Below are positions 1 to 46,192 of a stretch of 55,897 nucleotides of DNA, piece after piece. Origin of the DNA: a virus. A model generated the notes under the pieces. The model worked only from the letters and a program-made list of their open reading frames with translations, was not told the origin of the DNA and did no database searches. The DNA lies in the IMG/VR virus record IMGVR_UViG_3300046520_000074; one strand, written 5' to 3'. The translations under genes and the position numbers were made by a program. Numbering within the stretch: the stretch's first letter is position 1; each line of letters begins with the position of its first letter.

Positions 1-127
1 GGCAACGAGTACAGCGCCTGGCCGATGCAGATTGACGGCATCGAATCCAACGGCGACGGTACGGCTATTCGCCCGACGCTGTCGGTGGGTAACGTCAATG
101 GCCGGATCACAGCCCTGTGCCTGGCCT
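1..127. repeat. Copy 1 of the 127-bp terminal overlap (identical to 55771-55897)
   Basis: Direct reading: ggcaacgagtacagcgcctggccgatgcag... is repeated exactly at the window end. Confidence 0.95.
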
Positions 128-561
128 TCGATGACCTGCTCGAGTTCAAGTTGACCATGCGGCACACGCTGGGCAGCTACCTCGACGCGGTCAACTTCTC
201 CGGCGGCAACCCAACGGCAGACCCTACCCAGGAGACGATCGAGGTCTGGTATATCGACCAGAAGACGAACGAGGACGGGGAGACGGTCACCTGGGAGCTT
301 GCCAGTCCTGGCGACGTGGGCGGGGAGTCCATCGGCCGCCAGGCCACGACGCTGTGCCATTGGTGCCTGACCGGCGGCTACCGTGGGCCGAACTGCGGCT
401 ACACCGGGCCCTACGTGACGAAGGATGGGGTGGTCACCGATAACCCTGAGCTGGACGAATGCGATGCCACACTGGGTCGGGGCTGCATTCCGCGCTTTGG
501 CGAAGGCAACCCGCTGCCATTCGGCGGTTTCCCCGCCGTTTCCCTGATCGCCCGGAGTTGA
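1..561 (+). CDS. Minor tail protein L, C-terminal part (continues the ORF starting at 55582)
   Basis: In frame from base 1. The sequence GNEYSAWPMQIDG...RPTLSVGNVNG...CGYTGP...C..C resembles lambda gpL, including the C-terminal Cys cluster. Confidence 0.9.
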   Translation, partial: GNEYSAWPMQIDGIESNGDGTAIRPTLSVGNVNGRITALCLAFDDLLEFKLTMRHTLGSYLDAVNFSGGNPTADPTQETIEVWYIDQKTNEDGETVTWELASPGDVGGESIGRQATTLCHWCLTGGYRGPNCGYTGPYVTKDGVVTDNPELDECDATLGRGCIPRFGEGNPLPFGGFPAVSLIARS

Positions 562-563
562 CC

Positions 564-1319
564 ATGCGCAAACACATCTTGAGCACGATCCAGGCGCACG
601 CGGCAGCGGAATATCCGAAGGAATGCTGCGGGTTGCTGCTGGCCCTGGGTCGAAAGCAGCAGTACTTCCCATGCAAGAACATCGCGACCGAGCCGAACGA
701 AGAGTTCATCGTCGATCCTGAGGATTACGCCGCGGCGGAAGACCTGGGCGAGATCATCGGAATTGTTCACTCGCACCCGGATGCCACCAGCAGGCCTTCG
801 CCCCGCGACTTAGCGATGTGCGAAGCGACCGGCATGCCCTGGCACATCCTGAGCTGGCCGGAGGGCGACTTGCGGACGGTGCTGCCAACCGGTGAGACGC
901 CGTTGCTGAAGCGCCCGTTCGTCCACGGTGCCTGGGACTGTTGGCAGGTCTGCGCTGATTGGTACAAGCGCGAGTGGGGGCTGGAGTTCGAAGCCTTCAA
1001 GCGCGCAGACGGCTGGTGGGAGAATAAGGAAAACGCCAGCCTGTACGAGGCGAACTACGAGGCCGCCGGCTTCTGCCGGGTCGACCGGCCACAGCGCGGC
1101 GACATGATCGTGATGGAGGTGGGCCGGACGGTTCACCCGAATCACGCTGGTATTTTCCTTGGCGCCAACCCAGCACTGCCCGGCGAGGACGCCGCGACCT
1201 TCGGCCCCGGGCCGTTTCTGCTTCACCATTTATACGGTCGACCGAGCGAAATCATCGTTTTCGGTGGGCCGTGGCTGGATAGAACTCGGCTGGTCCTGCG
1301 CCACAAGGACGCGAAGTGA
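564..1319 (+). CDS. Tail tip assembly protein K (MPN/JAB plus NlpC/P60 domains)
   Basis: Internal ATG of ORF 459..1319. ECCGLL and HSHP..SRPSPRDL are JAB-type motifs. It sits between L and I as in lambda. Confidence 0.9.
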   Translation: MRKHILSTIQAHAAAEYPKECCGLLLALGRKQQYFPCKNIATEPNEEFIVDPEDYAAAEDLGEIIGIVHSHPDATSRPSPRDLAMCEATGMPWHILSWPEGDLRTVLPTGETPLLKRPFVHGAWDCWQVCADWYKREWGLEFEAFKRADGWWENKENASLYEANYEAAGFCRVDRPQRGDMIVMEVGRTVHPNHAGIFLGANPALPGEDAATFGPGPFLLHHLYGRPSEIIVFGGPWLDRTRLVLRHKDAK

Positions 1320-1410
1320 GGTATTCCGTGGCGTTGGTGCTTCCGGTTGATGGTGATAGCATCCTGTCATTAGTCGCGGGCTAGCTGCGACCATTGAGCA
1401 AGGAGTTCAA

Positions 1411-1848
1411 ATGTTCGTCGTCAGGCTACTGGTTTTGAGTTTTCTCGCTTTTTACAGCTACTCCATGGGTATGGAGCGAGGCGGGCTGAATGCGTTTGGT
1501 AAATTGGTAGCGATAAGCGGGATAGTGTTCGTTCCGGCTCTTTATATGCTCCCTACCATTGAGGCGGCAATTCGAAAGAGCAATAACCTTCCGGCGATAG
1601 CCGCTGTGAACTTCTTTCTGGGCTGGAGCCTGATTGGGTGGGTAACTGCTCTGGTATGGGCATTCAAGAACCCAACGCCAGTAATTCTGGCGGAAGCTCC
1701 TGCATACCTAACTGTTGAAACTAGCTCGACTACGGACACAAAACCGAAAAAAGATTGCCCATTCTGTGGCGAAGAGATTTTAGCGGTAGCGGTGAAGTGT
1801 AAGCATTGTGGCAGCGAGCTATCCGAATCCACTGGGGGTGTTGCGTGA
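1411..1848 (+). CDS. Membrane protein: superinfection-immunity (Imm-like) domain fused to a C-terminal zinc ribbon
   Basis: Three hydrophobic segments. NFFLGWSLIGWVTALVWAF matches the Imm_superinfect signature. C-terminal CPFCGEEI..KCKHCG. The segment is AT-richer than its flanks. Confidence 0.75.
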   Translation: MFVVRLLVLSFLAFYSYSMGMERGGLNAFGKLVAISGIVFVPALYMLPTIEAAIRKSNNLPAIAAVNFFLGWSLIGWVTALVWAFKNPTPVILAEAPAYLTVETSSTTDTKPKKDCPFCGEEILAVAVKCKHCGSELSESTGGVA

Positions 1849-2189
1849 AGGCTGTATTTTTACTTTTAGCAGTTACCGCACTGGCTGGTTGCGTATCGCC
1901 AGGCGACCTTGCGTCTAAAGACCCAAGCATCTCAGGCAGCACCACGAAGGACCCGAAGCGTTACGCGCTTTGCGTGCTCCCGAGATGGCAGGACGCGCGC
2001 AGCGACGTAACCATGTCCGAGACGGAATATGGCTACCGCCTCATCGCAGCGACCAACAACATGACCGATGAATTGCTGAGCATCCGCAAGACATCCAAGG
2101 GTAGTGCTGTGAAGCTGTACCAGCGCATGGCCTGGGCCCCGGGATATGGGCGGGGCGATATGGAGCAGGCAGTGAGGGGCTGTCTGTAA
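1845..2189 (+). CDS. Lipoprotein (moron gene)
   Basis: GTG start overlaps the upstream stop (GTGA). The N-terminus VKAVFLLLAVTALAGC carries a lipobox LAGC. Confidence 0.7.
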   Translation: MKAVFLLLAVTALAGCVSPGDLASKDPSISGSTTKDPKRYALCVLPRWQDARSDVTMSETEYGYRLIAATNNMTDELLSIRKTSKGSAVKLYQRMAWAPGYGRGDMEQAVRGCL

Positions 2190-2209
2190 ACGAAATGAAG
2201 TACACCAAG

Positions 2210-2229
2210 CCGCCTCCGGGCGGTTTTTT
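2210..2229 (+). terminator. Rho-independent terminator closing the K-I moron
   Basis: ccgcc-tccg-ggcgg hairpin followed by tttttt. Confidence 0.75.
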
Positions 2230-2246
2230 CATGCCCGGAGAAAACC

Positions 2247-2837
2247 GTGTCAGCGATCAATTGCAGCCATCCAACAATGACTACCATCCTGCTCTCGGGC
2301 CCGCTAATAAAGTTGTTTGGCCGGGTCCACCGCCGAGAACTTGGAAGCCAGTCGGTCGGCGAGGCGTTCAAAGCGCTGAAATGCACGCTCAATGGCTTCG
2401 ACTTGGCAATCAAGGATCTGGAGCGCCGAGGCATGCGGTTCGCGATTTTTCGGAACCGGAAGAATGTCGCGGAAAAGGAGTTCGCGCTGGGCGGTGCCGA
2501 GGAGATCAGGATTGTTCCGGTTATCTCAGGCAGCAAGCGCGCCGGGCTACTTCAGACAATTGTCGGTGCGGTGCTCATTGCCGCCTCGTTCATACCTGGC
2601 TTCCAGGCCCTGGCACCGGTGGGTATTGCCCTCGTCGCCGGCGGCGTCATCCAGATGCTCAGTCCCCAGGCCTCTGGCCTCAAGCAGAGCGCATCCCCCG
2701 ACAACGCCCCGTCCTACGCCTTCGGCAGCGCCAAGAACACCACAGCCAGCGGCAACCCCGTGCCGATCTGCATCGGCGACCGGCGGTGGGGCGGCATGAT
2801 CATTTCCGCATCGATATACGCCGAAGACAAAACGTAA
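2247..2837 (+). CDS. Tail assembly protein I
   Basis: gpI-like. Ubiquitin-like N-terminus (LSGPLIKLFG...), then IxPVISGSKRAG and a hydrophobic C-terminal half. The true start may be ATG 2277. Confidence 0.85.
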   Translation: MSAINCSHPTMTTILLSGPLIKLFGRVHRRELGSQSVGEAFKALKCTLNGFDLAIKDLERRGMRFAIFRNRKNVAEKEFALGGAEEIRIVPVISGSKRAGLLQTIVGAVLIAASFIPGFQALAPVGIALVAGGVIQMLSPQASGLKQSASPDNAPSYAFGSAKNTTASGNPVPICIGDRRWGGMIISASIYAEDKT

Positions 2838-2856
2838 ACCGAACGCAGTAAGCAGG

Positions 2857-2879
2857 CCGCCCATGAGGCGGTTTTTTTT
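2857..2879 (+). terminator. Rho-independent terminator/attenuator upstream of J
   Basis: ccgcc-catga-ggcgg hairpin followed by tttttttt. Confidence 0.7.
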
Positions 2880-2894
2880 CGCCTGGAGGAAAGC

Positions 2895-5800
2895 ATGGGC
2901 GCAGCACGCAAGATCGATATCCACGGCGCGAAGGGCGGAGACAAAAAGCCTAAGTCCCCGACTGAGGCCAGCGACAACCTGCGCTCCACGAACATTGCCA
3001 AGCTGCTGATCGCCGTGGGCGAGGGCGAGTTTGAGGAGGCTCCCACTGCGGCGACCATCTTCCTCGACAACACACCAATCAATGACGTCAGCGGCAACGT
3101 CAACTTCCCCAACGTGAAGTGGGAATGGCGCTCCGGGTCTGTCGATCAGACCTACATCCCCGGCATTCCATCTGTCGAGAACGAGACATCGCTGAACATC
3201 GAGCTGCGCAGCGATGCGGCCTGGGTCCGATCTGTCACGAACACTCAGCTGTCGGCCGTGCGCCTGCGCTTTGCCTGGCCCGCGCTCCAGCGCCAGGACG
3301 ACCAAGGCAACATTGGCGGCTATCGCATCGAGTACGCAATCGACGTGGCCACCGACGGCGGGGCCTATCAGCAGGTCCTAGTCGATGCAGTAGACGGCAA
3401 GACCACCACCCGCTACGAGCGCTCCAAGCGTGTCGACCTGCCAGAGGCAACAACCGGCTGGCAGATCCGCGTCCGCCGCATCACGCCCAACCAGAACAGC
3501 AACAAGATTGCCGACACCATGCTGATCGCCGGTTTCACCGAGGTGATCGATGCGAAGCTGCGCTACCCGAACACCGCGCTGCTGTACATCGAGTTCGACG
3601 CCGAGCAATTCACCAACATCCCGGCCGTCACCGTGAAGTGCAAGGGCCGTAAGTGGCAGGTCCCGAGCAACTACGACCCGATCAGCCGCACTTACACCGG
3701 CACGTGGGACGGCAGCATGAAGCTGGCCTGGACCAATAATCCGGCCTGGATCACGTACGGCATTTGCACAGAGGATCGTTTCGGCCTGGGCAAGCGCATC
3801 AAGACATTCATGGTCGACAAGTGGGAGCTGTACCGTATCGCGCAGTACTGCGACCAGCTCGTTCCCGATGGCCTGGGCGGCACAGAACCGCGCTTCCTCT
3901 GTGACATGAACCTGCAAGGCAAGGCCGACGCCTGGACGCTGCTGCGGGACATCTCCGGCATCTACCGCGGGATGACCTACTGGGCCCAGGGCCAGTTGAT
4001 CATGCAGGCGGACATGCCTCGCGCCCAGGACTTCGACTACGTCTTCACCCGGGCGAACGTCATCGACGGGAAATTTTCCTACGGCAGCGCATCGGCGAAG
4101 ACCCGGTACACCCGGGCCCTGGTCAGCTACGACAACCCGGCGAACAACTACGACACCGACGTCATTCCGTTTTCGGACCTTAACCTTCAGCGCCGCTATG
4201 GGGACCGGCCAACTGAGCTGAGTGCCATTGGCTGCACCCGTGCCTCTGAGGCCCAGCGCCGGGGCAAGTGGGCGATCCTGAGCAACAACCTGGACCGCAC
4301 CGTCACCTTCAAGACCGGGATGGAGGGCGTGATCCCGCTCCCGGGCCACATCATCCCGGTGGCCGACTCGCTGCTGGCCGGTCGGGAGATTGGTGGACGG
4401 ATCTCAGCCGTGGCCGGTCGCGTGGTGACCCTGGACCGTGACACCCAGGCGAAGGCCGGGGACCGATTGATCATCAACCTGCCCGGCGGGCGCGCAGAAG
4501 GGCGCACCGTGCAAAGTGTTGCCGGCCGTGCCGTGACCGTGACCATCGCCTACAGCGAGGCGCCTCGGGCACAGCTTCAGTGGGCACTCGACGCTGACGA
4601 CCTGGCGATCCCGCTGTACCGGGTCCTGCGGACCAAGCGCACCACCGAGGGCGACTTCGAGATCAGCGCGCTGCAGTACGAGCCGAGCAAGTTCGCCAAT
4701 ATCGATACCGGCGCACGCCTGGAAGACCGGCCAATCAGCGTTATTCCGATCACCGTCGTTCCTGCGCCTGCCAGCGTAACCCTGACGGCGAACTCTGTCG
4801 TTTCCCAGGGCATTGCCGTAGCCACGATGACCATCACCTGGCCTCCTGTTGAAGGGTCTGTGGCGTATGACGTTGAGTGGCGCAAGGACAGCGGCAACTG
4901 GATCAAGGTCCAGCGCACCGGCACGACCGGCGTCGACGTGGAGGGCATCTATGCGGGGGGCTACGTGGCCCGCGTCCGCGCGGTGAGTGCCTTCGATATC
5001 TCGTCGATCTGGCGTAACTCCGTGCTGACAGAGCTGAAGGGCAAGGAAGGCCTGCCGCCGGCGGTTACCCACCTGACAGCCACCAGCCTTGTCTATGGCA
5101 TCAGGCTTGACTGGGGCTTCCCGCCGGGAGCTGAGGACACCCAGCGCACTGAAATTTGGTACAGCCAAACGACGGCTCAGGAGAACGCCACAAAGCTGGG
5201 CGACTTTGCCTACCCGCAAGCCAGGACCGAGATGCAGAGCATCCTGGCGGGGGCAACGTTCTTTTTCTGGGCCCGCCTGGTGGATCGCACTGGCAACATT
5301 GGTCCGTGGTTCCCAATCGGGAATGGGGTAATGGGGCAGGCCAGCTCCGACCAGTCTGAATATGAGGACTACTTTGCCGGGAAAATCGGTGACTCCGCCC
5401 TGGGCGAACACCTGGGTGACCGCATTGACCTTATCGACGGTCCTGCCGATCTGCCTGGATCGGTCAATAACCGCATCCAGGTGGTGTCTGGCGAGGTGGA
5501 TGCGATTTCAGAAAAGGTAGACGGTGTTTTTGCCATAGTGAGTCCGCCAATGGCGGGAGATACCGAGGGCTTTGCCGGTACGATCGAGGCGATGGTCGGC
5601 GTCTGGTCGCTTCAGTCGGCCATCATCGAGGACGGCATCGCTACCGGTAAACGAATCGATACCGTGCAAGTTGAGCTGAACGATAACAGCGCGGTCATTC
5701 AGCAGGTCAGCCAGGCGCAAGTCGACTTGGACGGCAAGGCTTCGGCTATGTGGTCGGTGAAAATGCAGGTTGATGCGAACGGGCGCTATGTTGCGGCAGG

Positions 5801-6173
5801 GATCGGCCTGGGCATAGAGAACGGCCCGGCCGGACTGCAAAGCCAGTTCCTGGTGAATGTCGACCGGTTTGCCGTGGTGAATGGTTTGGGAGGCTCGGAT
5901 ATCGCTGTCCCTTTCATCGTTCAGAACGGGCAGACCTTTATCAGCTCGGCGTTCATCCAGGACGGCAGCATCACGATGCTGAAAATCGGGCAGTACCTGC
6001 AATCGGACAACTATGTTGCCGGCGTGCAGGGCTGGCGCCTGGATAAGGCCGGGAACCTGGAATTCAACGGTCCATCTCCGGGTGGTGGGCGACTGACAAT
6101 GACCAACCGCGCGATCAAGGTATATGACCAGAACGGCGTTAAGCGCGTGCAACTTGGGGACTTGTCGGCATGA
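2895..6173 (+). CDS. Host specificity / central tail fibre protein J
   Basis: 1092 aa with lambda gpJ-like organisation, including fibronectin-III-like repeats (e.g. TWPPVEGSVAYDVEWRKD). It follows I. Confidence 0.92.
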   Translation: MGAARKIDIHGAKGGDKKPKSPTEASDNLRSTNIAKLLIAVGEGEFEEAPTAATIFLDNTPINDVSGNVNFPNVKWEWRSGSVDQTYIPGIPSVENETSLNIELRSDAAWVRSVTNTQLSAVRLRFAWPALQRQDDQGNIGGYRIEYAIDVATDGGAYQQVLVDAVDGKTTTRYERSKRVDLPEATTGWQIRVRRITPNQNSNKIADTMLIAGFTEVIDAKLRYPNTALLYIEFDAEQFTNIPAVTVKCKGRKWQVPSNYDPISRTYTGTWDGSMKLAWTNNPAWITYGICTEDRFGLGKRIKTFMVDKWELYRIAQYCDQLVPDGLGGTEPRFLCDMNLQGKADAWTLLRDISGIYRGMTYWAQGQLIMQADMPRAQDFDYVFTRANVIDGKFSYGSASAKTRYTRALVSYDNPANNYDTDVIPFSDLNLQRRYGDRPTELSAIGCTRASEAQRRGKWAILSNNLDRTVTFKTGMEGVIPLPGHIIPVADSLLAGREIGGRISAVAGRVVTLDRDTQAKAGDRLIINLPGGRAEGRTVQSVAGRAVTVTIAYSEAPRAQLQWALDADDLAIPLYRVLRTKRTTEGDFEISALQYEPSKFANIDTGARLEDRPISVIPITVVPAPASVTLTANSVVSQGIAVATMTITWPPVEGSVAYDVEWRKDSGNWIKVQRTGTTGVDVEGIYAGGYVARVRAVSAFDISSIWRNSVLTELKGKEGLPPAVTHLTATSLVYGIRLDWGFPPGAEDTQRTEIWYSQTTAQENATKLGDFAYPQARTEMQSILAGATFFFWARLVDRTGNIGPWFPIGNGVMGQASSDQSEYEDYFAGKIGDSALGEHLGDRIDLIDGPADLPGSVNNRIQVVSGEVDAISEKVDGVFAIVSPPMAGDTEGFAGTIEAMVGVWSLQSAIIEDGIATGKRIDTVQVELNDNSAVIQQVSQAQVDLDGKASAMWSVKMQVDANGRYVAAGIGLGIENGPAGLQSQFLVNVDRFAVVNGLGGSDIAVPFIVQNGQTFISSAFIQDGSITMLKIGQYLQSDNYVAGVQGWRLDKAGNLEFNGPSPGGGRLTMTNRAIKVYDQNGVKRVQLGDLSA

Positions 6174-11492: not shown

Positions 11493-12629
11493 TCACAACG
11501 CCAATTCGGCTCCCACCTCGACGTACTCAATTGTCTTGTTGCCGTGCCCCTCCTGGTAGTGCCTGGTCATCTTCTCGTCCGCATGGCCCAGCAGCGCCTG
11601 GATATACTCCTGCGGGAAATCCTGCTGCTCATACAGCCATGCGCCCAAAGCGCGGATCTCATGAAAAGTGGGGCGCTCGCCGGCCTGCACATGGTCGTAG
11701 GCGTGTGCCGCGTCCCGGGCCTTGCTGAACTCCTTGGTCAGGTAGTCCGGTGTCACCGACGTCCAATGGTCCTTCGCGTCGATCTGCTCGCGCCGGCGCG
11801 CCTTCGGCTTGTAGTGGATCAGGTAAGGCGAAGCCAGAGGCGAACGCAGGCACTCGCCAACTACCTCCCGGAGCGCGGCGCCCATCTTGATTTTCAGGTG
11901 GACGGGGTTGTCATAACCCTGGGTCTTGCCGGGCGATACCGTCAGAGTGTTTTTCTCCATGTCGGCAGCTGATTTCAGCCATGTCACGATATCTTCGCGC
12001 CGTTGTAGGCTGGTCAGCGCCAGGCGAATTGCTCGCTTCAGCCATGGCGGCGTGGTGACCGCGTCGATGATCGACTTCAACCCATCGAGCGTGTGCCGCT
12101 GGCGCTTCTTCTCCGCCTCCTTCTTCACCAGGGTCAGCTCCGCGTTATTTCGCTCGGCCAGGCCCTTGGCCACGGCAAACGCGAATATCTGCACCCACAG
12201 TCCCCTGTGCTTGGTGTAGGCGTTGTTGCTGAACTGGTCCAGATACTCGGCCATAGCCAGCACGTCCATCTGACCGATGAGCCTATCTCCAAGGTCCTGC
12301 CGGTAGCGCTCGATCTTGAATTTGATCTCTTCCAAGGTGCGAGCGGCGTAGCCCTTATCCACCAGCCATTCATCGTGGAAGCGCTGGAGCAGGTTGCTGA
12401 CAGTCGGCAGGCGGTCACCCGTCAGCAGGGTGAGCAGCGCGCCATCGTCGACAACGAGTGCCGCCAGTTTCAAATTCGCCGCCCGGGCTAGTTTTATTGC
12501 CTCCTCTATGGGTCGGTTGATGCTCGTCATCAGGCCGGTGATTGGGTTGCGGTACCGCCAATACTTCCCGTTGGGGTAGAGATTTGGCGGTAACTTCCTG
12601 TTTTTCAGCGTGCGCGGCCGGGCAGCCAT
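11493..12629 (-). CDS. int: Tyrosine integrase (lambda Int family)
   Basis: N-terminal arm-binding type sequence (LPPNLYPNGKYWRYRNP). C-terminal HEIRALGAW...LLGHADEKMTRHY catalytic motifs. Confidence 0.92.
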   Translation of the reverse strand: MAARPRTLKNRKLPPNLYPNGKYWRYRNPITGLMTSINRPIEEAIKLARAANLKLAALVVDDGALLTLLTGDRLPTVSNLLQRFHDEWLVDKGYAARTLEEIKFKIERYRQDLGDRLIGQMDVLAMAEYLDQFSNNAYTKHRGLWVQIFAFAVAKGLAERNNAELTLVKKEAEKKRQRHTLDGLKSIIDAVTTPPWLKRAIRLALTSLQRREDIVTWLKSAADMEKNTLTVSPGKTQGYDNPVHLKIKMGAALREVVGECLRSPLASPYLIHYKPKARRREQIDAKDHWTSVTPDYLTKEFSKARDAAHAYDHVQAGERPTFHEIRALGAWLYEQQDFPQEYIQALLGHADEKMTRHYQEGHGNKTIEYVEVGAELAL

Positions 12630-17155: not shown

Positions 17156-19099
17156 CTACGCCGCAGCCGCCTGCTGCTCTACAGCACGCCACGGATCGTT
17201 GGCCCGTGCCAAAGCAGCCATCGGCGGCGGACTGACGCTGTTGCCGCACATGTGGACCTGCTGGGTTTTGGTGAAGGGCTTGCCGTCGGCGCCATGGCTG
17301 ATGACGTAGTCGGCGGGGAAGCCCTGGGCCTTGTACAGCTCGGCCGGCTTCAGCATGCGCAGGCAGATGTCGACGATCACATACGGCGTGCCCTTGACCA
17401 TCACAGTGACCATCGCCAAGCGATCCTTGGTGGTGATGGTGGGCGCCGGTGCATCGCAAGCGCTGATGTTTTCGGTGCCGTAGTAGCTGATCAGGAAGGC
17501 CGCGACGCGAAGGGCGCCGTCTTCATGCTCAGGCGACAGCTTGTAATGCAGCAATGCGTGATGCTCGGCGCCCGCAGTCATGGTCGGTACCGGCTCATCT
17601 ACTCCCCGACCAACGCAGTTCCGGCGCAGGGTGGCTAGGCTGGCGCTCACCAACTGCTGCTGGCTGCCCGTGTTGGTCACCGTGGTCAGCGGCTCGTCCA
17701 TGCCCTTTGCGAAGGTGGTGTTAAAGCCGCCGTTCATCTGCGCCATAAACACAGTGGAGATACCCATCGCGTGGGCGGCACCGGCTGGGCGCTGGTAGTT
17801 GCCGCCACTGGTGATGGTTGGCAGAGGCTCATCCAGCGCCTTGCCCTCGTCCGCAAATCGGAACTTCACCAGGTGCGCCGAAGCGATCGCGGTGTCCGCT
17901 TTTGCTGTGATGGTGTACATCGCTTCATCTCCCGGGCGCGGCTCTGTTTGTCCAGCCCGCCCGCCGACACCCGTCAAGATAGGACTGATCAGCGTCAGCT
18001 CCCCACGGTTCGCGCATGTCACGGTAGGCAATGGGGCCATCGGGTCGTTAACCCTGACGCTACCCTGATGCGTGGCTGGCGCGATGACCGGGCTTGCCAT
18101 GGCGAACGAACCGCCGCGGGGCCAGCTGGTGATGGTACGTAGCGGCTCGGCCGACGATTGCGCCAGCTCACCAGACCAGTTAGCGATCGGCACAATGAAC
18201 GGCGCCGGGTTGTCGATGACGAACTTCTTCATGCCCTTGGCAACGCGGCGCAGGGTGGCCGGCGCCAGGTCCTTCTTACGGCCGAAGATGCTCTTGCCCA
18301 GGTCGCTGAAGTCGATGCAGTCGGCGGCGGTCTTCCACTTTTGCTGGCCTTTTACAGGGTTCTTCGCGTGGGTTGGCTCAGGCCATACGATTGGCTGTCC
18401 GTCGCACCGGGCGATCATGAACAGGCGTTCCCGGCTGGTCGGGGCGCCGAAGTCGCAGGCCTTGATCACACGCCATTCCACTGCGTAGCCCAGGCGCTTC
18501 AGCTCGGCTACGAACACAGCCCATGTCTGCCCGCGGCGTTTCGGGTCAGGCACCAGGAACTGCTGGTGGACAGGAACCACTTCGCCTGGCTCAGCGATGC
18601 CGCCGCCCAGCTTCACGACGCGGCCTGAGGACTTGCACCTCTTGGCGATCAGCGGCCCCCACTGGAGGATCTGCTTCACGTTCTCCAGGCTGATCACCCG
18701 GGGCATCTTCTTGCCGGCCCACTTGAGGCCGATCCACGACAGGTTCCGGATCTCGCGCTTGCGCGGCTGGCCGCCGGCGGCCTGGCTGTGGTGCGTGCAG
18801 TCCGGTGACATGTGGAACCAGCCCACGGCCTTACCGCCACACTCGGTATCGGGGTCGCCGTCGAAAACATCCGTCGTGTAGTGCACTGCGCCCGGGTGAT
18901 TCACGGTGTGCATACTGATCGCCTGCGGGCTGTGATTCTTCGCAACGTTCACCGTCCGGCCCAGGCCCATTTCCAACCCGGTACCGGCACCGCCGCCACC
19001 GCAGAAGAAGTCGACCACGATCTCGTCATCCTGAGGGTTGAAGCCGAGTCCGTATTGGGTTTTGAAATCGAAGGGGTGTTTCTTCTGTTGTGCGGACAT
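17156..19099 (-). CDS. DNA (cytosine-5) methyltransferase, large form
   Basis: FCGGGGAG (motif I), SPDCTHHS (PC-type motif IV), ENV (motif VI), GNSV (motif X). Confidence 0.85.
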   Translation of the reverse strand: MSAQQKKHPFDFKTQYGLGFNPQDDEIVVDFFCGGGGAGTGLEMGLGRTVNVAKNHSPQAISMHTVNHPGAVHYTTDVFDGDPDTECGGKAVGWFHMSPDCTHHSQAAGGQPRKREIRNLSWIGLKWAGKKMPRVISLENVKQILQWGPLIAKRCKSSGRVVKLGGGIAEPGEVVPVHQQFLVPDPKRRGQTWAVFVAELKRLGYAVEWRVIKACDFGAPTSRERLFMIARCDGQPIVWPEPTHAKNPVKGQQKWKTAADCIDFSDLGKSIFGRKKDLAPATLRRVAKGMKKFVIDNPAPFIVPIANWSGELAQSSAEPLRTITSWPRGGSFAMASPVIAPATHQGSVRVNDPMAPLPTVTCANRGELTLISPILTGVGGRAGQTEPRPGDEAMYTITAKADTAIASAHLVKFRFADEGKALDEPLPTITSGGNYQRPAGAAHAMGISTVFMAQMNGGFNTTFAKGMDEPLTTVTNTGSQQQLVSASLATLRRNCVGRGVDEPVPTMTAGAEHHALLHYKLSPEHEDGALRVAAFLISYYGTENISACDAPAPTITTKDRLAMVTVMVKGTPYVIVDICLRMLKPAELYKAQGFPADYVISHGADGKPFTKTQQVHMCGNSVSPPPMAALARANDPWRAVEQQAAAA

Positions 19100-19139: not shown

Positions 19140-20300
19140 TTACTTCTTCGGGTAGGTCTTGGTCAGCGCGCCGTTGACGGCATGGCCTCGCTTGAGCACG
19201 ACGCGAGCCAGGGCGGCCCGGTCTTTCTCGCTGTGGCTGGCCTGACTGAGCAGACCGAAGTAGCTGTTTGCGGTTTCGCGCAGATCCTCGGCAGGCGCCG
19301 CGGCTGTTCGCTTCAGCGCCTGAGCCAGTGACCGCTTCCGTGTCGTGCGCCGCCAGGGCTTGATGACGTGGCCGACGAAGTCGACGCCCCGATCCACCGG
19401 CTGAAGAATCGTCTTCTTCGGGTTCAGCTTGGCGCCCAGGCTGGGCAGGAATGCTTCCACTGCTGCCAGCCAGGCGTTGAGCTGTTGCGGCGACTCATGC
19501 AGGAACACGAAGTCATCGACGTATCGGATGTAGTGCTTGGCGCCCAGTCGGTGCTTGGCGAACTGGTCCAGGGCGTTCAGGTACACGTTGGCGAAGAACT
19601 GCGAGGACAGGTTGCCGATGGGCAGCCCCAGGCGGGCAGGCTGCGCAGTGAGGCGCTTGTGTTGCGGCACCCGATTGAACAGATGGGCCGGGCTGCGCAC
19701 CTCGTAGTCCTCGCGAGGGTCGTGCATCAGGATCTGTTCGGCGAGGGCCAGCCACCAGGGTTCGGTGATCTTGGCGGCCAACTGCTGGCGCAGCACCTCT
19801 TTGTCGATGGCGACGAAGAAGTTCGCCAGGTCGCACTTGAGGTAGAAGATCGGCTTCGACCAGTTCTCGCTGGCGCTGCGGATCTTCGATTCAAGGCGCT
19901 GGGCGGCGTACAACGTGCCTCGCCCAGGGATGCATGCGCAACTGTCCGCTATGAAGCTGGCGTAGAAGCGCGGTGCCACATGGTTGTACAGCAGGTGGTG
20001 GACGACGCGGTTCCGAAAGGCTGCTGCCCAGACTTCCCGGGCTTTCGGTCGGGTGACCACGAAGCAGATGGAGCGGCCTGGCCGGTAAGTGCCGGCGGTC
20101 AGGTCGTTGTGCAGCTCGATCAGGTTCCGCTCCAGGTCCATTTCGAAAGCCAGCGCGCTGTCGCTGTTGCGCTTGGAGCGTCGGCAGTCGTAATAGGCCT
20201 GGACCAGATCGCTGAATGGGTAGGGACCAACGTTCGAATCTGCGGACGGGGCGGACGCGGAGCTCGTTGTTCTTGTCGTTGTTGTTCTGATTGCCATCAT
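19140..20300 (-). CDS. DGR reverse transcriptase
   Basis: LPIGNLSSQFFANVYLNALDQF (DGR-type IGxxxSQ motif 4) and YIRYVDDFVF (YxDD). It lies immediately 3' of the TR. The only in-frame ATGs (20300 and 20297) lie inside the TR. Confidence 0.9.
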   Translation of the reverse strand: MMAIRTTTTRTTSSASAPSADSNVGPYPFSDLVQAYYDCRRSKRNSDSALAFEMDLERNLIELHNDLTAGTYRPGRSICFVVTRPKAREVWAAAFRNRVVHHLLYNHVAPRFYASFIADSCACIPGRGTLYAAQRLESKIRSASENWSKPIFYLKCDLANFFVAIDKEVLRQQLAAKITEPWWLALAEQILMHDPREDYEVRSPAHLFNRVPQHKRLTAQPARLGLPIGNLSSQFFANVYLNALDQFAKHRLGAKHYIRYVDDFVFLHESPQQLNAWLAAVEAFLPSLGAKLNPKKTILQPVDRGVDFVGHVIKPWRRTTRKRSLAQALKRTAAAPAEDLRETANSYFGLLSQASHSEKDRAALARVVLKRGHAVNGALTKTYPKK

Positions 20301-20340
20301 CGAAGTTCATGTTGAATGCGTTGTTGGCGGAGCGCTGCGA
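20237..20340 (-). repeat. DGR template repeat (TR)
   Basis: Sense strand TCGCAGCGCTCCGCC-AACAACGCATTCAACATGAACTTCGATGATGGCAATCAGAACAACAACGACAAGAACAAC-GAGCTCCGCGTCCGCCCCGTCCGCAGATT. It has 10 Asn codons. It is homologous to three VRs, differing almost only at its adenines. Confidence 0.9.
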
Positions 20341-20511
20341 CCTATCGTGCTATCTACGTCACCAAGCCGAAGGCGGAGCCGATCAGCAAGGCAACTGCGC
20401 GAGACCTACACGGACGCTTTAGACCGGCGGTATCTCTTGTGCGCATGGCGGTGACCAGAAGGTCAGCGGCACGACCAGATTCAATTCGCACAGACCTGAA
20501 AGCCGTGGCTC
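20341..20511 (-). ncRNA. avd-TR spacer, presumed part of the DGR RNA
   Basis: 171-nt non-coding interval between the avd stop and the TR 5' end. It is positionally equivalent to the BPP-1 Sp region. Confidence 0.5.
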
Positions 20512-20868
20512 TCAGATGGCGGGCGCGGTTGGGGTGGAACGTTTCCAGGCGTTTGCCTGTTTGCCAATTGAGGTGGTGATCTCGATAGCCTTGGCGTGCT
20601 GCGGCACGCTGATGAAACGGCTTTCCTTGAAAAGCCTCATCAGGAACTCGATCACCTGGACCTTCTCGACCAGCGAGGTCAGGTGTGGATGCTTGTCCCG
20701 GGTCGAGTTGGCCCGGGCAATCAACATCAGCACGTCGATGCACTCGTCGATCACCCGCTTGCCGAGCGACTGCTTCAGGTCGCGGGGGATGTTTCGAGTC
20801 AGGTTGGTAGCCATGAGCAACAAGCCCATCGACACCTTGTAGATGCTCAGTTCTGTGTGCATTCCCAT
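20512..20868 (-). CDS. avd: Accessory variability determinant (Avd), four-helix-bundle protein
   Basis: 118 aa, basic and helical. It resembles the 23S-rRNA-IVS / four-helix-bundle family. It sits between the target and the TR as in BPP-1. Confidence 0.8.
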   Translation of the reverse strand: MGMHTELSIYKVSMGLLLMATNLTRNIPRDLKQSLGKRVIDECIDVLMLIARANSTRDKHPHLTSLVEKVQVIEFLMRLFKESRFISVPQHAKAIEITTSIGKQANAWKRSTPTAPAI

Positions 20869-20925
20869 TGCAGTGGATCTCCTTGAAGAGCAACCGTCCG
20901 CAAGCGGCCGGATTAAATAAGCAAA

Positions 20926-21546
20926 TTAATCAATCAATTGACTGCGGACGGGGCGGACGCGGAGCTCGTTGCTCTTGACGTCGCTGACCTGATAGCCATC
21001 ACCGAAGCCCATGATGAATGCGGTGTCGGCGGAGCGCTGCGAACTCGACCAGTAGGCGCGATCCTGGAACGCCTCAGGGCCATCTTCCTGGAAGGCTTCG
21101 ATGCTGGTCTGGGTGGGCGACTCCTCGGTGTACAGCAGGCCGACCGGCTCGCTGTTGGGGTTGTCGCCGCTGCGCCCGTACTGCCAGTTCTCTTCGGTGG
21201 TTGGCTTGAAGTGGCGATACTGCAGCTCCTGCACGTCGCGGGCCGGGATCGCCCAGTCAGTGAAACCGCCGATGTCCAGGGCCAGGACTTTCTGCGCCAG
21301 TTCGCTGCCAGAGGCTGCCATGGCCTCGGTATTGGCCCGGCTGTCGGTGAAGCTTTCGGCCCCCTCGATCTTCTCGCCGTACTTGCCCCATGCACCGACC
21401 AGCTCATGTTCGGCGCCGGCGGTGATATTCAGGTAGCGCTTGCCGGTGTCCGGGTCGCGGGTGATGCCGGAGAAGAAGCCGCCACCGAACGGCTGGCCGA
21501 TTTCCGGGATGGTCACTGCTGGTGCTGCTTGAGCTGCTGCGGACAT
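20926..21546 (-). CDS. DGR target protein 1 (DUF1566 / C-type-lectin-fold-like)
   Basis: Start at MSAAAQ with an RBS aaagaggaaa. GQPFGGGFFSG...DW.IPA..EL...YWSSSQRSA...ELRVRPVR. VR1 occupies the C-terminus. Confidence 0.85.
   Translation of the reverse strand: MSAAAQAAPAVTIPEIGQPFGGGFFSGITRDPDTGKRYLNITAGAEHELVGAWGKYGEKIEGAESFTDSRANTEAMAASGSELAQKVLALDIGGFTDWAIPARDVQELQYRHFKPTTEENWQYGRSGDNPNSEPVGLLYTEESPTQTSIEAFQEDGPEAFQDRAYWSSSQRSADTAFIMGFGDGYQVSDVKSNELRVRPVRSQLID
20942..21042 (-). repeat. DGR variable repeat VR1
   Basis: 101 bp alignable to TR 20240-20340. 13 differences by hand count, all at TR adenines. Peptide SQRSADTAFIMGFGDGYQVSDVKSNELRVRPVR. Confidence 0.9.
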
Positions 21547-21572
21547 GGTCTTTCCTCTTTTCGAAGGCAACA

Positions 21573-21596
21573 AAAAAGGCGCTGCTGCGCCCCGGT
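21573..21596 (-). terminator. Hairpin plus T-run after target 2
   Basis: Minus strand ggcgc-agca-gcgcc followed by ttttttg. Confidence 0.55.
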
Positions 21597-21624
21597 GCCG
21601 GATCAAGAACGGATGAATGAAGGA

Positions 21625-22230
21625 TTAAATAAAGAATCTGCGGACGGGGCGGACGCGGAGCTCGCCGTCCTTGACGCCGTAGTCCTGAGGGCCAACATCG
21701 AAGTGCACGCTGAATGCGCCGTAGGCGGAGCGCTGCGAAGATGACCAGTACCAGGTGTCTTGGGCGAACACCTCAGGACAGTTCAGCCAGCCCTGGTACA
21801 GCTCGGCAGCGGCGGGCAGGTAGAAGTCGTTGTGGCCGTCTACCGCATACTCGGCGCAGGCATCGGACGCCGGATAATCGTTTTCGTCGAAGCACATCAG
21901 TTCGGTGTTGAGCTTGCCGTCCGTTTTGCTGGTGCCCGGCAGATCAGTGTTACGTGGACCCCATTCAAAGCTGCCAGCGTCCTTTGCAGCGAAGATCAGG
22001 TAGTGCGCCGGGACATCGCCACGAGCGGCAACCAGGCCGCCGTTGATGCCGCCCTGGCTCGGCCAGTACTCGCCCAGGGCAGGCACTGCACCTGGTGCTG
22101 GCGGCGCAACATTCGCCGCCTGGGGCAGGGCACCGGCAAACAAGGCGGCGACCGCGATCTCGGCCAGCCTGGTGCGCGCCACTTTGAATTGAGCACCGTT
22201 GTAGTTCAGCTTCACCATTTCAGCTTTCAT
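21625..22230 (-). CDS. DGR target protein 2 (DUF1566 / C-type-lectin-fold-like)
   Basis: GEYWPSQGGINGGLV...DFYLPAAAEL...WYWSSSQRSA...ELRVRPVRR. VR2 occupies the C-terminus. Confidence 0.85.
   Translation of the reverse strand: MKAEMVKLNYNGAQFKVARTRLAEIAVAALFAGALPQAANVAPPAPGAVPALGEYWPSQGGINGGLVAARGDVPAHYLIFAAKDAGSFEWGPRNTDLPGTSKTDGKLNTELMCFDENDYPASDACAEYAVDGHNDFYLPAAAELYQGWLNCPEVFAQDTWYWSSSQRSAYGAFSVHFDVGPQDYGVKDGELRVRPVRRFFI
21635..21738 (-). repeat. DGR variable repeat VR2
   Basis: 104 bp alignable to the TR. 17 differences by hand count, all at TR adenines. Peptide SQRSAYGAFSVHFDVGPQDYGVKDGELRVRPVR. Confidence 0.9.
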
Positions 22231-28036: not shown

Positions 28037-28147
28037 ATCTATCTCCAATTTGGAGCAGGTGGCCGGCACTGCCCGGCATGTATCAGGCCTTGCCGCTCGT
28101 ACCTGAGCAGCACCGCGATTCACCTGCGATGAGAAGCAATAAATGGA

Positions 28148-28750
28148 TCAATGAATAGACAATCTGCGGACGGGGCGGACGCGGAGCTCGTAGAACTTGA
28201 AGCTGGTGCCCTGAGTGCCAGCAACGAAGTACATGAGGAAGGCGTCGTAGGCGGAGCGCTGCGAACTGCTCCAGTGCCACTCCTTCTCAAACAGCTCCGG
28301 CACGTTCGCCATGCACAGGGCCAGCTCGTCGATGGCTGGCAGGTAGAGATCCTTGTGGCCCTCGACAGTGAGGCCGTCGCACCACTGGGCGGCCGGGTGG
28401 TTCTGGTCGGAGCCTTCAACCAGGTGAAGCGTGTTCGCCAGGCCATCCCGGCGGCTTGCCGCTTCCGGCTCATCCACCTCATAGCCGCCAAAGGCCAGCT
28501 TCTTGCCCTTGACCGATTCGTGAGTGGGGACGATCACCCAGTAATCAGGGGTGCCGTTCTCTCCGCGCATCAGGCCGGCATTCACACCGCCTTGGCCGGC
28601 CCAATACTCGCCGATGGCCGGGGCCGAGATTGCGAACGTGGCAGGCTGAGCGCTCATCGACAAGGTCGCCAGTTTCAGCACCATCGATTCGTCAGGACTG
28701 CTGATCATTAGGTCGCCACGGGTGTAGGTGGTCAGTTGAGTTGCTTGCAT
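28148..28750 (-). CDS. DGR target protein 3 (remote; DUF1566 / C-type-lectin-fold-like)
   Basis: Start at MQATQL with an aaggaa RBS. GEYWAGQGGVNAGLM...DLYLPAIDEL...WHWSSSQRSA...ELRVRPVRR. VR3 occupies the C-terminus. Confidence 0.85.
   Translation of the reverse strand: MQATQLTTYTRGDLMISSPDESMVLKLATLSMSAQPATFAISAPAIGEYWAGQGGVNAGLMRGENGTPDYWVIVPTHESVKGKKLAFGGYEVDEPEAASRRDGLANTLHLVEGSDQNHPAAQWCDGLTVEGHKDLYLPAIDELALCMANVPELFEKEWHWSSSQRSAYDAFLMYFVAGTQGTSFKFYELRVRPVRRLSIH
28161..28264 (-). repeat. DGR variable repeat VR3
   Basis: 104 bp alignable to the TR. 17 differences at TR adenines plus one at a TR guanine (codon GAC in TR versus TTC in VR3). Peptide SQRSAYDAFLMYFVAGTQGTSFKFYELRVRPVR. Confidence 0.88.
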
Positions 28751-30921: not shown

Positions 30922-31662
30922 TTAGTAATGAAACTTCTGTGTTGCCTGCACCACGACGCCCACGATCCGGCAGTTCTCATCAAATACTTCCGTGGGGTAC
31001 CCGGGATTCAGCGGCTTCAGGAACAGCTTTCCGCCATCACTGACTAGCTTTTTGAAGGTTGCCTCATTGCTGTCGGGCAGCTTGGCTACGACCAGCTTGC
31101 CCGGCGCAGCTTCGACCTCTGTATCGACGAGGATCAGTGAGCCTTGGGCGATGCTGGTGCCAACCTGCGAGGTCATTGAGTCGCCCTTGACTTCAAGCCA
31201 GAACGCTGGGCCCTTCGAGTCGTATTCGGAAAACTCGTATCGATCTGAAAATCCAGCCGGGTAGGGCTCGACAGCTTCAGACCAAGCGCCGGCGGCAACC
31301 CAACTGATCACTGGGTAGCGGAAAGACTGCTTTGGTTGTCTCACTTCCCCCACGTTTGAATTCGAATCCTCAGAAAGGCGATCGATTTCTTTTGCCAGGC
31401 GCGCACTGAAGTCCGACACCGGGACTTGAAGGTAGCGAGCGAAGACAGCCGCCGCCTCGATGTTCAACGCGTTTCTGCCAGTCAAATAGTGGCTGGCTGC
31501 ACTTTGACTATTCGCCTTGAGTCCTTCAATGGCGATCTTCTCCTGGCTGATTCCCAGTTCCTTTTTCTTCGCCTTGTAAATCGCGTTAAGCGCAGCGCAC
31601 TCGGCCTTCTCAACCTCGGAAAGCTCGCGTTTTTTGGTCAGGTTTTTTTCAGTCGTTTTCAT
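30922..31662 (-). CDS. cI: CI-type repressor (HTH plus S24 autopeptidase)
   Basis: Close match in pattern to lambda cI: YPVISWVAAGAW (Ala-Gly cleavage site), FWLEVKGDSM, ATFKKL...LKPLNPGYP. Confidence 0.92.
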   Translation of the reverse strand: MKTTEKNLTKKRELSEVEKAECAALNAIYKAKKKELGISQEKIAIEGLKANSQSAASHYLTGRNALNIEAAAVFARYLQVPVSDFSARLAKEIDRLSEDSNSNVGEVRQPKQSFRYPVISWVAAGAWSEAVEPYPAGFSDRYEFSEYDSKGPAFWLEVKGDSMTSQVGTSIAQGSLILVDTEVEAAPGKLVVAKLPDSNEATFKKLVSDGGKLFLKPLNPGYPTEVFDENCRIVGVVVQATQKFHY

Positions 31663-38521: not shown

Positions 38522-38923
38522 TTACCGCCCCAGCTTTTCCATGGCTGCATCAGCCAGGAAAGACGACCGGCTTTTGATGTTGTGATCGCGAACAAAGCGG
38601 TCGATCTGCTGGATCACATAGCCAGGCAGTGTGACGTTGACCTTCTCGGTTTTGCCGAGGTAGGGCGTGATGTCGATTTCCAGCATGCCCCATCCCATAT
38701 CATCGAACTCTGGATTGTTCCGGTGGTTGTTGATAGAGGTTGGGAGCGGGATGCCTTTCTCAGAGCTCGCCAGCTCTTCCAGCATGATGTGCGCGATTTC
38801 GATGGCAGCGCTGTACGCCTCCTCGAATGTGTCGCCGGCTGTAATTGCCCCGGGAATGTCAGGAATCTGGATGCCGGTAGCGGTTCTCTCGTCGCCCCAC
38901 TCGATGCAGATTGGATATTGCAT
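38522..38923 (-). CDS. hicB: HicB antitoxin
   Basis: MQYPICIEWGDE...IPDIPGAITAGDTFEEA (HicB fold) plus a C-terminal RHH-like SRSSFLADAAMEKL. Confidence 0.85.
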   Translation of the reverse strand: MQYPICIEWGDERTATGIQIPDIPGAITAGDTFEEAYSAAIEIAHIMLEELASSEKGIPLPTSINNHRNNPEFDDMGWGMLEIDITPYLGKTEKVNVTLPGYVIQQIDRFVRDHNIKSRSSFLADAAMEKLGR

Positions 38924-38960: not shown

Positions 38961-39149
38961 TTAGATCAACCCGGCTAGTTTCTTGATGGCCCTTACGGTT
39001 CCGATTGGTAGGTCTTTCTTCGGGTGTGGCACTGGAACCGTTTGGGGTCTGTTTGGATGCTTGAACATGTGGTGGCTTCCGGTTACTCGATCTAGAACCC
39101 ATCCAGCGGTTTCAAGCTCCTTTATCAACTGCCTGCTTTGCACCTCCAT
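38961..39149 (-). CDS. hicA: HicA mRNA-interferase toxin
   Basis: 62 aa. LIKELETAGWVLDRVTGSHHMFKHP. Confidence 0.85.
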   Translation of the reverse strand: MEVQSRQLIKELETAGWVLDRVTGSHHMFKHPNRPQTVPVPHPKKDLPIGTVRAIKKLAGLI

Positions 39150-41206: not shown

Positions 41207-41806
41207 ATGACAGCCAAGCAACCCGACTGGGAGGCGATCGAACGAGCCTACCGGGCCGGCGCGCTCTCCATCAGAACCATTGCCGAGCGCCAAGGCGTAA
41301 GCGACACCGCAATCAGGAAGAAGGCCAAGGCCCTTGGATGGGCGAGAGACCTTTCTGACCAGGTGCGCAAAGAGGTTCGCAGCAAGCTGGTTCGCGGAGA
41401 GGTTCGCAACGATCAAGGCGCGAACTGCGAACTGGATGCTGAGATCATCGAGGAGGCAGCGGAAGAAGGCGCCAAGGTGGTTCGCAGCCACCGGCGAGAC
41501 ATCCGCAAAGCCACGAACCTTGCGAACCTGCTGATGGACGATCTTTTGTCCACCATCCAGCGCCGAGTAGAGATCGAAGAAGACATCGAGGCGGAAACCT
41601 CCGAAGACAGCAACGGGATGCGCCGGGCTTCGATGCTCGCCGCCGTGGCGCTGCCCAGCAACTCCAAAACACTGTTCCAGCTTTCCTCAGCGATGAAGAA
41701 CCTGCAGGTTCTGGAGCGCCAGGCATACAGCCTGGACGAGAAAGAGAAGACGGATGAAGCCGATGAACTATCGAAAATGATGGACGAACTATCGAAGGAC
41801 GCCTGA
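41207..41806 (+). CDS. terS: Terminase small subunit
   Basis: N-terminal HTH (LSIRTIAERQGVSDTAIRKKA). It sits directly upstream of terL. Confidence 0.8.
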   Translation: MTAKQPDWEAIERAYRAGALSIRTIAERQGVSDTAIRKKAKALGWARDLSDQVRKEVRSKLVRGEVRNDQGANCELDAEIIEEAAEEGAKVVRSHRRDIRKATNLANLLMDDLLSTIQRRVEIEEDIEAETSEDSNGMRRASMLAAVALPSNSKTLFQLSSAMKNLQVLERQAYSLDEKEKTDEADELSKMMDELSKDA

Positions 41807-41807
41807 C

Positions 41808-45818: not shown

Positions 45819-45831
45819 CCTGGAAATCCAC

Positions 45832-46146: not shown

Positions 46147-46169
46147 CTGAACACCGAACACCGAACACC

Positions 46170-46192
46170 AAGCCGGCCATGAGCCGGCTTTT
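46170..46192 (+). terminator. Rho-independent terminator
   Basis: agccggc-catga-gccggct followed by tttt. Confidence 0.7.

Follow-up and report, generated by a model that had tools for sequence, protein, structure and literature searches.

Diversity-generating retroelements (DGRs) are, to our knowledge, the only natural system of targeted protein hypermutation in prokaryotes, and nearly all that is understood of their mechanism comes from Bordetella phage BPP-1, where a hairpin is required downstream of the variable repeat (VR). The BPP-1 element has the order mtd-avd-TR-spacer-brt on one strand, TR being the template repeat and brt the gene of the reverse transcriptase (RT); it has one target, the 381-aa tail-fibre protein Mtd (CLec1/Mtd type), and, between TR and brt, a structured spacer of 140 nt (Rfam RT-10). 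This spacer, 3′ of TR, provides the adenosine used for priming and forms base pairs with TR 118–129; G117 of TR is the first templated base, beside the TR:Sp duplex, and RNA upstream of the template pairs with RNA downstream of it in a ‘cPRT stop’ duplex (bioRxiv 10.1101/2023.10.23.563531). A different group, the DUF1566/CLec2 ‘category d’ elements, was described by Wu et al. in 2018 (PMC5758913): about half of their targets are short DUF1566-only proteins, their architecture is of type B (avd, TR, RT), multiple and remote targets occur in prophages, and DUF1566 is assigned the C-type lectin (CLec) fold. Here we analysed a 55,897-nt virus sequence, IMG/VR record IMGVR_UViG_3300046520_000074 (in its whole length, the window), which very probably carries, judging from its sequence, an active Avd-type DGR of Wu's architecture B with DUF1566/CLec2 targets, sited within the leftward early operon of a temperate lambda-like siphophage of Pseudomonas.

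The locus shares with the BPP-1 DGR the order target(s)-avd-TR-RT on one strand, a homologous RT (1e-34) with the I/LGxxxSQ and YxDD motifs, and Avd. Similarly, TR-to-VR differences are confined to adenines at AAC codons, the VR lies at the target C-terminus and ends in a GC-rich 3′ homology, and a short duplex at the TR 3′ boundary would leave G as the first template base. In place of the single Mtd, three DUF1566 targets of ~200 aa (T1–T3) are found in an early operon; and where BPP-1 has its spacer between TR and brt, the RNA family RT-15 lies 5′ of TR and the RT open reading frame (ORF) starts in TR, with no RT-10-like element found. The locus is also similar to ‘category d’ elements, of which the Legionella pneumophila DGR (target LdtA) is the example, sharing a VR that overlaps a DUF1566-type domain, and architecture B; whereas LdtA is a surface lipoprotein, T1–T3 have neither signal peptide nor lipobox and are encoded by phage early-operon genes. 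Since Wu et al. already describe the DUF1566/CLec2 class, the element is known in kind.

A repeat search of the window revealed a direct repeat with three in-register copies starting at 20240, 20942 and 21638 (spacing 702 and 696 nt), corresponding to TR, VR1 and VR2. Scanning the whole window with TR located VR3 on the same strand, and found no TR-like copy in the tail genes, J included. We compared TR with each VR by ungapped alignment of the 101-nt core on the minus strand (Table 1). A preliminary description of this DNA, prepared from the sequence alone, had counted 13 mismatches in VR1 and 17 in VR2 by hand and placed all of them at TR adenines, and the machine alignment agrees; with 31 adenines in 101 nt, the hypergeometric P for adenine-only mismatches is 2.5e-8 for VR1 and 3.3e-11 for VR2. 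Adenine is replaced by G, T or C, at codon positions 1 and 2 of the target frames. As that description also stated, the flanks TCGCAGCGCTCCGCC and GAGCTCCGCGTCCGCCCCGTCCGCAG are without change in all copies; a 3′ GC-rich block of 26 nt, a candidate for the 3′ homology of the initiation of mutagenic homing (IMH) type, is likewise invariant, and TR identity extends beyond the core by 4 nt with VR2 and 3 nt with VR3. In the target frame TR encodes SQRSANNAFNMNFDDGNQNNNDKNNELRVRPVR and has the ten Asn codons reported before, and VR1, VR2 and VR3 each stop 3–5 codons short of the target stop codon. At most about 1e17 protein variants can arise per target. These results show that a single, unchanging TR is the sequence donor for VR1, VR2 and the remote VR3, the C-terminal variable regions of three paralogous DUF1566 proteins of ~200 aa. 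The adjacent paralogous pair of target genes in the preliminary description is thus upheld but is not the full target set, and the element is not complete within 19140–22230, as had been claimed, because a third target with VR3 lies outside, at 28148–28750.

We then compared the window with near-identical phage contigs found by exact-protein look-up (JGI 3300046491, JGI 3300046457 and two Logan runs). Over ~20 kb (18.5–38.75 kb) there were 3 single-nucleotide polymorphisms outside the VRs, the contigs being otherwise 99.8–100% identical. VR2 was present as three alleles in three long contigs and VR1 as two alleles, all differences falling at TR-adenine sites; TR and VR3 were identical across the contigs. 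This comparison across samples shows that the element has recently rewritten VR2 and VR1, and the constancy of VR3 between samples fits its single G>T never having been overwritten. Adenine-specific mismatches, a bRT-like RT, a bAvd and allele differences between samples together bear out the adenine-directed mutagenic retrohoming by a DGR that had been proposed. In the Logan runs, short-read unitigs equivalent to window 20238–21663 break inside VR2 and at the TR 3′ end. Assemblies fragment at DGR repeats, so surveys of short contigs would miss the cassette.

Table 1 Coordinates of the DGR, its targets and selected genes of the window.
Feature	Position	Strand	Remarks
DGR reverse transcriptase, 386 aa	19140–20300	−	ORF; Pfam RVT_1 1.2e-16
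3′ arm of long-range helix, 5′-CAGAUUCGA-3′	20234–20242	−	last 3 nt of TR and next 6; putative IMH*-like segment flanking the cDNA initiation site
TR	20240–20340	−	101-nt core, 31 adenines; invariant in all near-identical contigs
RT-15 RNA (Rfam RF03018)	20338–20528	−	fills avd–TR gap, overlaps avd 3′ end, abuts TR 5′ end
5′ arm of long-range helix, 5′-UUGAAUCUG-3′	20476–20484	−	invariant single-stranded RT-15 linker; putative primer strand
avd accessory gene, 118 aa	20512–20868	−	Pfam PF22296 bAvd 47.6 bits, cut-off 40
VR1 3′ flank	20894–20941	−	AT-rich 20910–20941; GC hairpin, 4-nt loop, 20894–20911
Target gene 1 (T1), 206 aa from ATG at 21546	20926–21546	−	ORF open to 21606; DUF1566/Lcl_C
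VR1	20942–21042	−	13 mismatches to TR, 13/13 at TR adenines
VR2 3′ flank	21572–21637	−	AT-rich 21600–21637; hairpin, 4-nt loop and T-run, 21572–21593
Target gene 2 (T2), 201 aa	21625–22230	−	DUF1566/Lcl_C protein
VR2	21638–21738	−	17 mismatches to TR, 17/17 at TR adenines
VR3 3′ flank	28092–28163	−	AT-rich 28128–28163; imperfect hairpin 28092–28111
Target gene 3 (T3), 200 aa	28148–28750	−	remote DUF1566 protein; phrog_4245 5e-31
VR3	28164–28264	−	18 mismatches to TR: 17 at adenines and one G>T
Integrase	11493–12629
cI repressor gene	30922–31662
Terminase, portal, major head and tape measure genes	41.8–55.2 kb
Tail genes including lambda J-type central fibre	0.5–6.2 kb		minor tail proteins and J-type fibre 459–6173
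Structural module, overall span	1–6173 and 41207–55572

The ORF and motif coordinates confirmed the 386-aa RT, the 118-aa Avd, the two adjacent target ORFs and the motifs IGNLSSQ (19599–19619) and YVDD (19512–19523) of the preliminary description. Among solved structures, the best match of the RT is BPP-1 bRT (8ub7, 1.1e-34), followed by a group II maturase (1e-8) and a retron RT (8e-4); the assignment suggested before, to DGR RTs and not to retron or group II enzymes, agrees with this order of matches, and the retron and group II models score under their cut-offs. Membership of Avd in its family was likewise obtained with Pfam PF22296, bAvd; its score with NCBIfam DivGenRetAVD was 50.3 bits, under the cut-off of 80, and a phmmer search of PDB sequences gave no match. 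The Rfam scan detected no group II intron RNA and no retron RNA family. PADLOC returned generic RT-domain matches only for the RT, and nothing for Avd or the targets. An anti-phage defence RT (DRT/Abi) was considered and rejected, as PADLOC and NCBIfam gave no specific family match and no partner genes.

We next turn to the RNA. The 171-nt gap between avd and TR has the length given in the preliminary description, but is no plain spacer: it is Rfam RT-15, detected by cmscan at 173.2 bits (gathering score 82, E = 3.8e-43) with the full model, 1–192, matched. All 8 phage relatives with an RT also have RT-15, which in each of them stops at the TR 5′ edge, and 2 relatives without an RT lack it. 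In an independent alignment of 34 sequences the RT-15 stems covary, 31 of 50 pairs having compensatory changes, and the 3′ stem closes immediately before TR. On the other side of the template, the Rfam scan gave no RT-10 match at E ≤ 0.1, and RNAalifold on 34 sequences found no conserved structure within 230 nt 3′ of TR. The RT start codons, ATG-ATG (20300, 20297), lie within TR, and as the RT ORF overlaps TR by 61 nt, there is no BPP-1-type spacer between TR and RT. Among related loci, 60/75 have in-frame RT start codons only within or upstream of TR and none past its 3′ end, and an ATG 57 nt before the TR end is conserved. Weinberg et al. in 2017 proposed RT-10 as the BPP-1 spacer and speculated on other RT motifs in DGRs, giving RT-15 no role (PMC5737381); our literature search found no paper linking RT-15 to DGRs. 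Compared with the RT-15 and RT-10 motifs as they stand in Rfam, RT-15 is here tied to a DGR, lies 5′ of TR and pairs with the TR 3′ boundary. The structured RNA around the template thus appears to lie wholly 5′ of TR in this clade.

The pairing involves a long-range helix in which UUGAAUCUG, in RT-15, is the reverse complement of CAGAUUCGA, at the TR 3′ boundary, giving 9 bp (7–9 bp in the clade). In the 34-sequence alignment, 88.1% of helix cells were paired against 79.9 ± 1.1 in shuffled alignments, and the covariation score was 0.215 against 0.093; in both cases 0/500 shuffles reached the observed value. Sliding the partner arm by 1–3 columns decreased pairing to 23–46%. We also performed a permutation test of the helix arms with 84 loci, comprising 55 distinct arm pairs: at the variable positions 6–9, 170/220 cells were paired, against a permuted mean of 134 ± 4.3 and a maximum of 153 in 20,000 permutations. 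Position 7 is occupied by G-C (31), U-A (11), C-G (5) and A-U (4) pairs; position 2 shows a compensatory change from U-A to C-G in one locus; and position 8 is U-G in 15/55 distinct arm pairs, which fits pairing in sense-strand RNA. The duplex begins exactly where TR/VR homology stops, and the next template base is G (20243). Taken with the analogy to BPP-1, this evidence leans slightly towards RT-15 doing the work of the BPP-1 spacer from a position upstream of the template. The RT-15:TR duplex would then be the template:primer duplex, with the primer upstream of the template and not downstream, and synthesis of complementary DNA (cDNA) would start at the G just 5′ of CAG; RT-15 would combine the primer strand, protein-binding stem-loops and possibly a cDNA stop just 5′ of TR. 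From BPP-1 biochemistry, the RT–Avd complex would be expected to reverse-transcribe TR RNA, misincorporating opposite adenines, and the cDNA would then replace the VR, with the GC-rich 3′ homology, the AT-rich flank and the downstream hairpin taken as guides.

In the target-site flanks, each VR is followed by an AT-rich stretch of 30–40 nt and then by a GC hairpin. In relatives, both the hairpin of VR1 type (CCGGCCG-CTTG-CGGCCGG) and that of VR2 type (GGCGC-AGCA-GCGCC with a T-run) are conserved, and the former also covaries. Both have 4-nt loops and lie 30–45 nt past the VR ends; they are reminiscent of the BPP-1 hairpin, although the spacing is unlike that of BPP-1. The search for inverted repeats within 40 nt of the VR ends found no hairpin, and across relatives hairpins became visible only 30–60 nt downstream. 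The VR2 hairpin and its T-run, between target 2 and target 1, look like an intrinsic terminator. This hairpin may double as the DGR target hairpin, or antitermination may be needed for read-through into T1-avd-TR-RT. We also observed that the RT-15 arm UUGAAUCUG is complementary to DNA 3′ of VR2 (CAGATTC, 7 nt, 21631–21637) and of VR3 (CAGATT, 6 nt, 28158–28163); in the VR1 3′ flank the complementarity is CAG only, 3 nt. The matches to the VR2 and VR3 flanks might have a role in target recognition.

The cassette is widespread. Its nucleotide identity is 80–82% to Pseudomonas phages SC_8_H2H8_2017 and Cruim01, and 68–72% to Haboob, phPA-G and LPPA56, to Burkholderia phages Magia and E192a, and to Shewanella phage QDWS. 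The eight annotated phage cassettes are all in the same early-operon position; Magia, Cruim01, SC_8_H2H8_2017, Haboob, phPA-G, LPPA56 and QDWS also have the same gene order, RT-15 and two adjacent lectin-fold targets. Only the annotators of Magia recognised a DGR, the genes being elsewhere mostly unannotated or the RT called ‘retron-type’, and the Cruim01 paper makes no mention of an RT or DGR. In the four Pseudomonas phages tested, VR mismatches were all at adenines save single terminal positions. With one genome scanned per species, RT relatives of 60–94% identity were found at 80 loci in Pseudomonas and many Betaproteobacteria. One to three VRs are carried by 75/79 usable loci (three VRs by 20), and the pooled mismatches of the related loci number 2195 at A versus 54 at G, 29 at C and 21 at T (104 combined). 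A remote VR lies 2.5–8 kb upstream in 22 loci, as in the window. Furthermore, RT-less Pseudomonas phages (Aurca01, Medea1, phi_D3, U7, the podovirus FBPa42 and the virulent jumbo phage Callisto) have target-gene 3′ ends matching a DGR TR, with differences mostly at adenines; FBPa42, for example, differs from the Haboob TR at 17 adenines and 1 other position. These orphan VRs are compatible either with loss of the RT cassette or with diversification in trans by a co-resident DGR.

We then investigated the target proteins. T1 matches phrog_4245 (3.7e-31), and its length of 206 aa is also that given by gene callers on other contigs. T3 is encoded ~7.8 kb upstream of TR, downstream of cI in the same leftward operon. 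Roughly 950 homologues were found for T2, mostly in Pseudomonas prophages, and 540 for T3; they are mostly annotated as DUF1566 proteins of Pseudomonas, and many target homologues carry PF07603. In an alignment of T2 homologues (n = 118), the protein is strongly conserved save for entropy peaks exactly at the residues of the TR AAC codons. A target profile matched PDB 8q4e at E = 0.0024; for the name of this match, ‘HbP1’, the literature yielded only an unrelated human transcription factor. The targets had no match in NCBIfam. An AlphaFold model of T3 from a 148-sequence alignment (predicted local distance difference test score, pLDDT, 83) shows an N-terminal beta-hairpin and helix, a linker and the DUF1566 domain, with VR loops of low confidence; the T2 model, from 39 close homologues, was unusable (pLDDT 54). 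T2 and T3, and not T1, have this N-terminal hairpin-helix module of ~35 aa (22129–22230; 28651–28750), joined by a flexible linker to DUF1566. In a Foldseek search of PDB, the module gave only a weak, non-significant VapB/AbrB-like resemblance (E ~2), which we do not rely on. In BFVD, the significant structural neighbours of the T3 model are DUF1566 proteins of viruses, and in some of these the domain forms the C-terminal part of a tail-fibre-like protein. Signal peptide, lipobox and transmembrane segment were absent from T1–T3, hydrophobicity being too low. Target homologues adjoin cI or sit among small early genes in sipho-, podo- and virulent jumbo (myovirus) phages.

Several results weigh against the readings preferred here and have to be set beside the alternatives. 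The VR1 hairpin of the window phage has one mismatch. Roughly one in three of the distinct sequences lacks pairing at helix positions 6 and 9, and the RT-15:TR duplex could instead be a scaffold or stop element, priming resting on covariation and the BPP-1 analogy. VR3, with a non-adenine change and no variation between samples, may no longer be targeted. The DUF1566/Lcl_C profile that had been suggested for the targets does match, but at 8e-7 (T1) and 5e-6, below the Pfam cut-off; Foldseek found no significant C-type-lectin match in PDB, and DUF1566 domains also cap tail-fibre-like proteins in other phages. A retron, group II intron or defence-associated RT in place of a DGR enzyme is extremely improbable: the ‘retron-type’ labels given by annotators of related phages, and the weak NCBIfam and PADLOC matches to group II, retron and DRT models, are consistent with it, but the scores are far below curated cut-offs (group II model TIGR04416, 93 versus 300 bits; retron St85 RT, 45.6 versus 235; all Drt models far under theirs), bRT is the best solved-structure match by 26 orders of magnitude, and the locus has the SQ motif, Avd and the TR/VR pair. 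Almost as improbable is that gene conversion homogenised paralogous gene ends, or that this is a dead DGR relic with a merely historical adenine bias. A relic would agree with an invariant VR3 that has one G>T relative to TR, and with related phages that retain target genes without RT and Avd; it is at odds with 30/30 VR1 and VR2 mismatches at adenines, with intact RT, Avd and RT-15, and with otherwise near-identical contigs that carry different VR2 and VR1 alleles, at TR-adenine sites only. A serious contender, if a somewhat doubtful one, is that RT-15 serves only as a ribonucleoprotein scaffold or cDNA stop element, the RT-15:TR duplex being for folding and priming coming from a site in the RT coding RNA, a nicked RNA 3′-OH or target-primed synthesis. 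The ‘cPRT stop’ duplex of upstream and downstream RNA in BPP-1 is a precedent, and closure of the RT-15 3′ stem right before TR, the two often unpaired helix positions and the limit of +230 nt to which conservation 3′ of TR was examined all accord with it. Against this stand the start of the duplex at the end of TR/VR homology, which leaves a template G as does G117 in BPP-1, the lack of conserved structure and of an RT-10 match in the region scanned 3′ of TR, and the start of the RT ORF inside TR in most loci, with no non-coding spacer left.

The weakest step of the analysis concerns the role of the targets. Since they lack a signal peptide and occupy an early, non-structural position, they may be intracellular binders rather than tail fibres; from sequence and gene context, we tentatively favour a role for these diversified proteins as binders within the infected cell or the lysogen. 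Their genes lie in a neighbourhood rich in methyltransferases and lambdoid ‘ea’-type accessory genes. A rather unlikely alternative, with other roles making up the remainder, is that they are virion-associated receptor-binding proteins (adhesins or tail-fibre tips) that switch host tropism as Mtd does in BPP-1. Tail proteins make up most viral DGR targets (Roux 2021, PMC8144416), the BFVD neighbours include tail-fibre-like proteins with a C-terminal DUF1566 and a peptidase S74 domain or collagen repeats, the DUF1566 part of the 583-position phrog_4245 profile is C-terminal, and the N-terminal module of T2 and T3 could dock onto a fibre. A virion role is harder to reconcile with target genes in the early leftward operon, between cI or the recombination genes on one side and methyltransferases and integrase on the other, with the tail genes 15–25 kb away and encoded on the other strand. 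This position is kept in 8 phage relatives, homologues beside cI or among small early genes occur in phages of sipho-, podo- and jumbo-myovirus morphology, the proteins are only ~200 aa, and T1 is without the N-terminal module.

The window as a whole represents a complete, circularly permuted genome of a lambda-like temperate siphophage, the host being a fluorescent Pseudomonas: the structural module exits at the right end (tape measure 52187–55234) and re-enters at the left end (459–6173), from which we conclude that the contig is circularly permuted and complete. The lambdoid phage setting given in the preliminary description is evident from cI, Cro, CII, NinB, NinG, Q, Erf, an exonuclease, an integrase and a lambda J-type tail. 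The leftward early operon reads cI, T3, Erf, exonuclease, DGR cassette, three methyltransferases and int, placing the cassette outside the tail module; the rightward operon contains CII, Ant, O-like, NinB, NinG and Q genes. Taken as a whole, the phage is new: of a 24-kb query, the best record of a phage covers 13%.

Three neighbouring features were noted in addition. A C5-cytosine methyltransferase gene (647 aa, 17156–19099, minus strand) adjoins RT and is mosaic among the otherwise near-identical contigs, with dozens of differences, mostly at every third base and clustered at ~17190–18465, and a length of 644 aa instead of 647 in one contig; the pattern suggests that a diverged allele has recombined in, perhaps exchanging the target-recognition domain. 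A HicB-like antitoxin gene (133 aa, 38522–38923, minus strand; Pfam HicB_lk_antitox on an identical contig) lies between the Q region and the packaging genes, beside a 62-aa ORF (38961–39149, minus strand) that could be HicA, making a toxin-antitoxin pair possible. A gene for an SOS-response-associated peptidase (SRAP, PF02586; 9997–10710, minus strand) stands beside the integrase gene and is probably near one prophage end; in Burkholderia phage Magia, a SRAP gene likewise adjoins the integrase.

What the locus adds to the known class is evidence of natural activity, the assignment of the orphan Rfam family RT-15 to DGRs, a testable model of upstream priming backed by covariation, and targets that are non-structural early-operon proteins. 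The clade to which it belongs is large, occurs in culturable phages of Pseudomonas and Burkholderia, and has a differently organised DGR RNA. As natural allele differences show activity, the isolated relatives (Cruim01, Haboob, phPA-G, LPPA56 and Magia) are practical experimental models. Furthermore, a clade that targets small early-operon proteins could reveal a use of DGRs beyond host-range switching. Speculatively, and as a combined proposal that we regard as doubtful in its entirety, this clade may diversify, in place of receptor-binding proteins, small cytoplasmic early-operon binders whose partners in the cell vary (host defence or takeover targets, for instance), by way of a permuted RNA with RT-15 as upstream primer and handle, and maybe also act in trans on co-infecting genomes, since RT-less phages, a virulent jumbo phage among them, retain matching VR ends that differ in the adenine pattern. 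If the targets are indeed intracellular binders, the phage would gain an adaptive binder repertoire.

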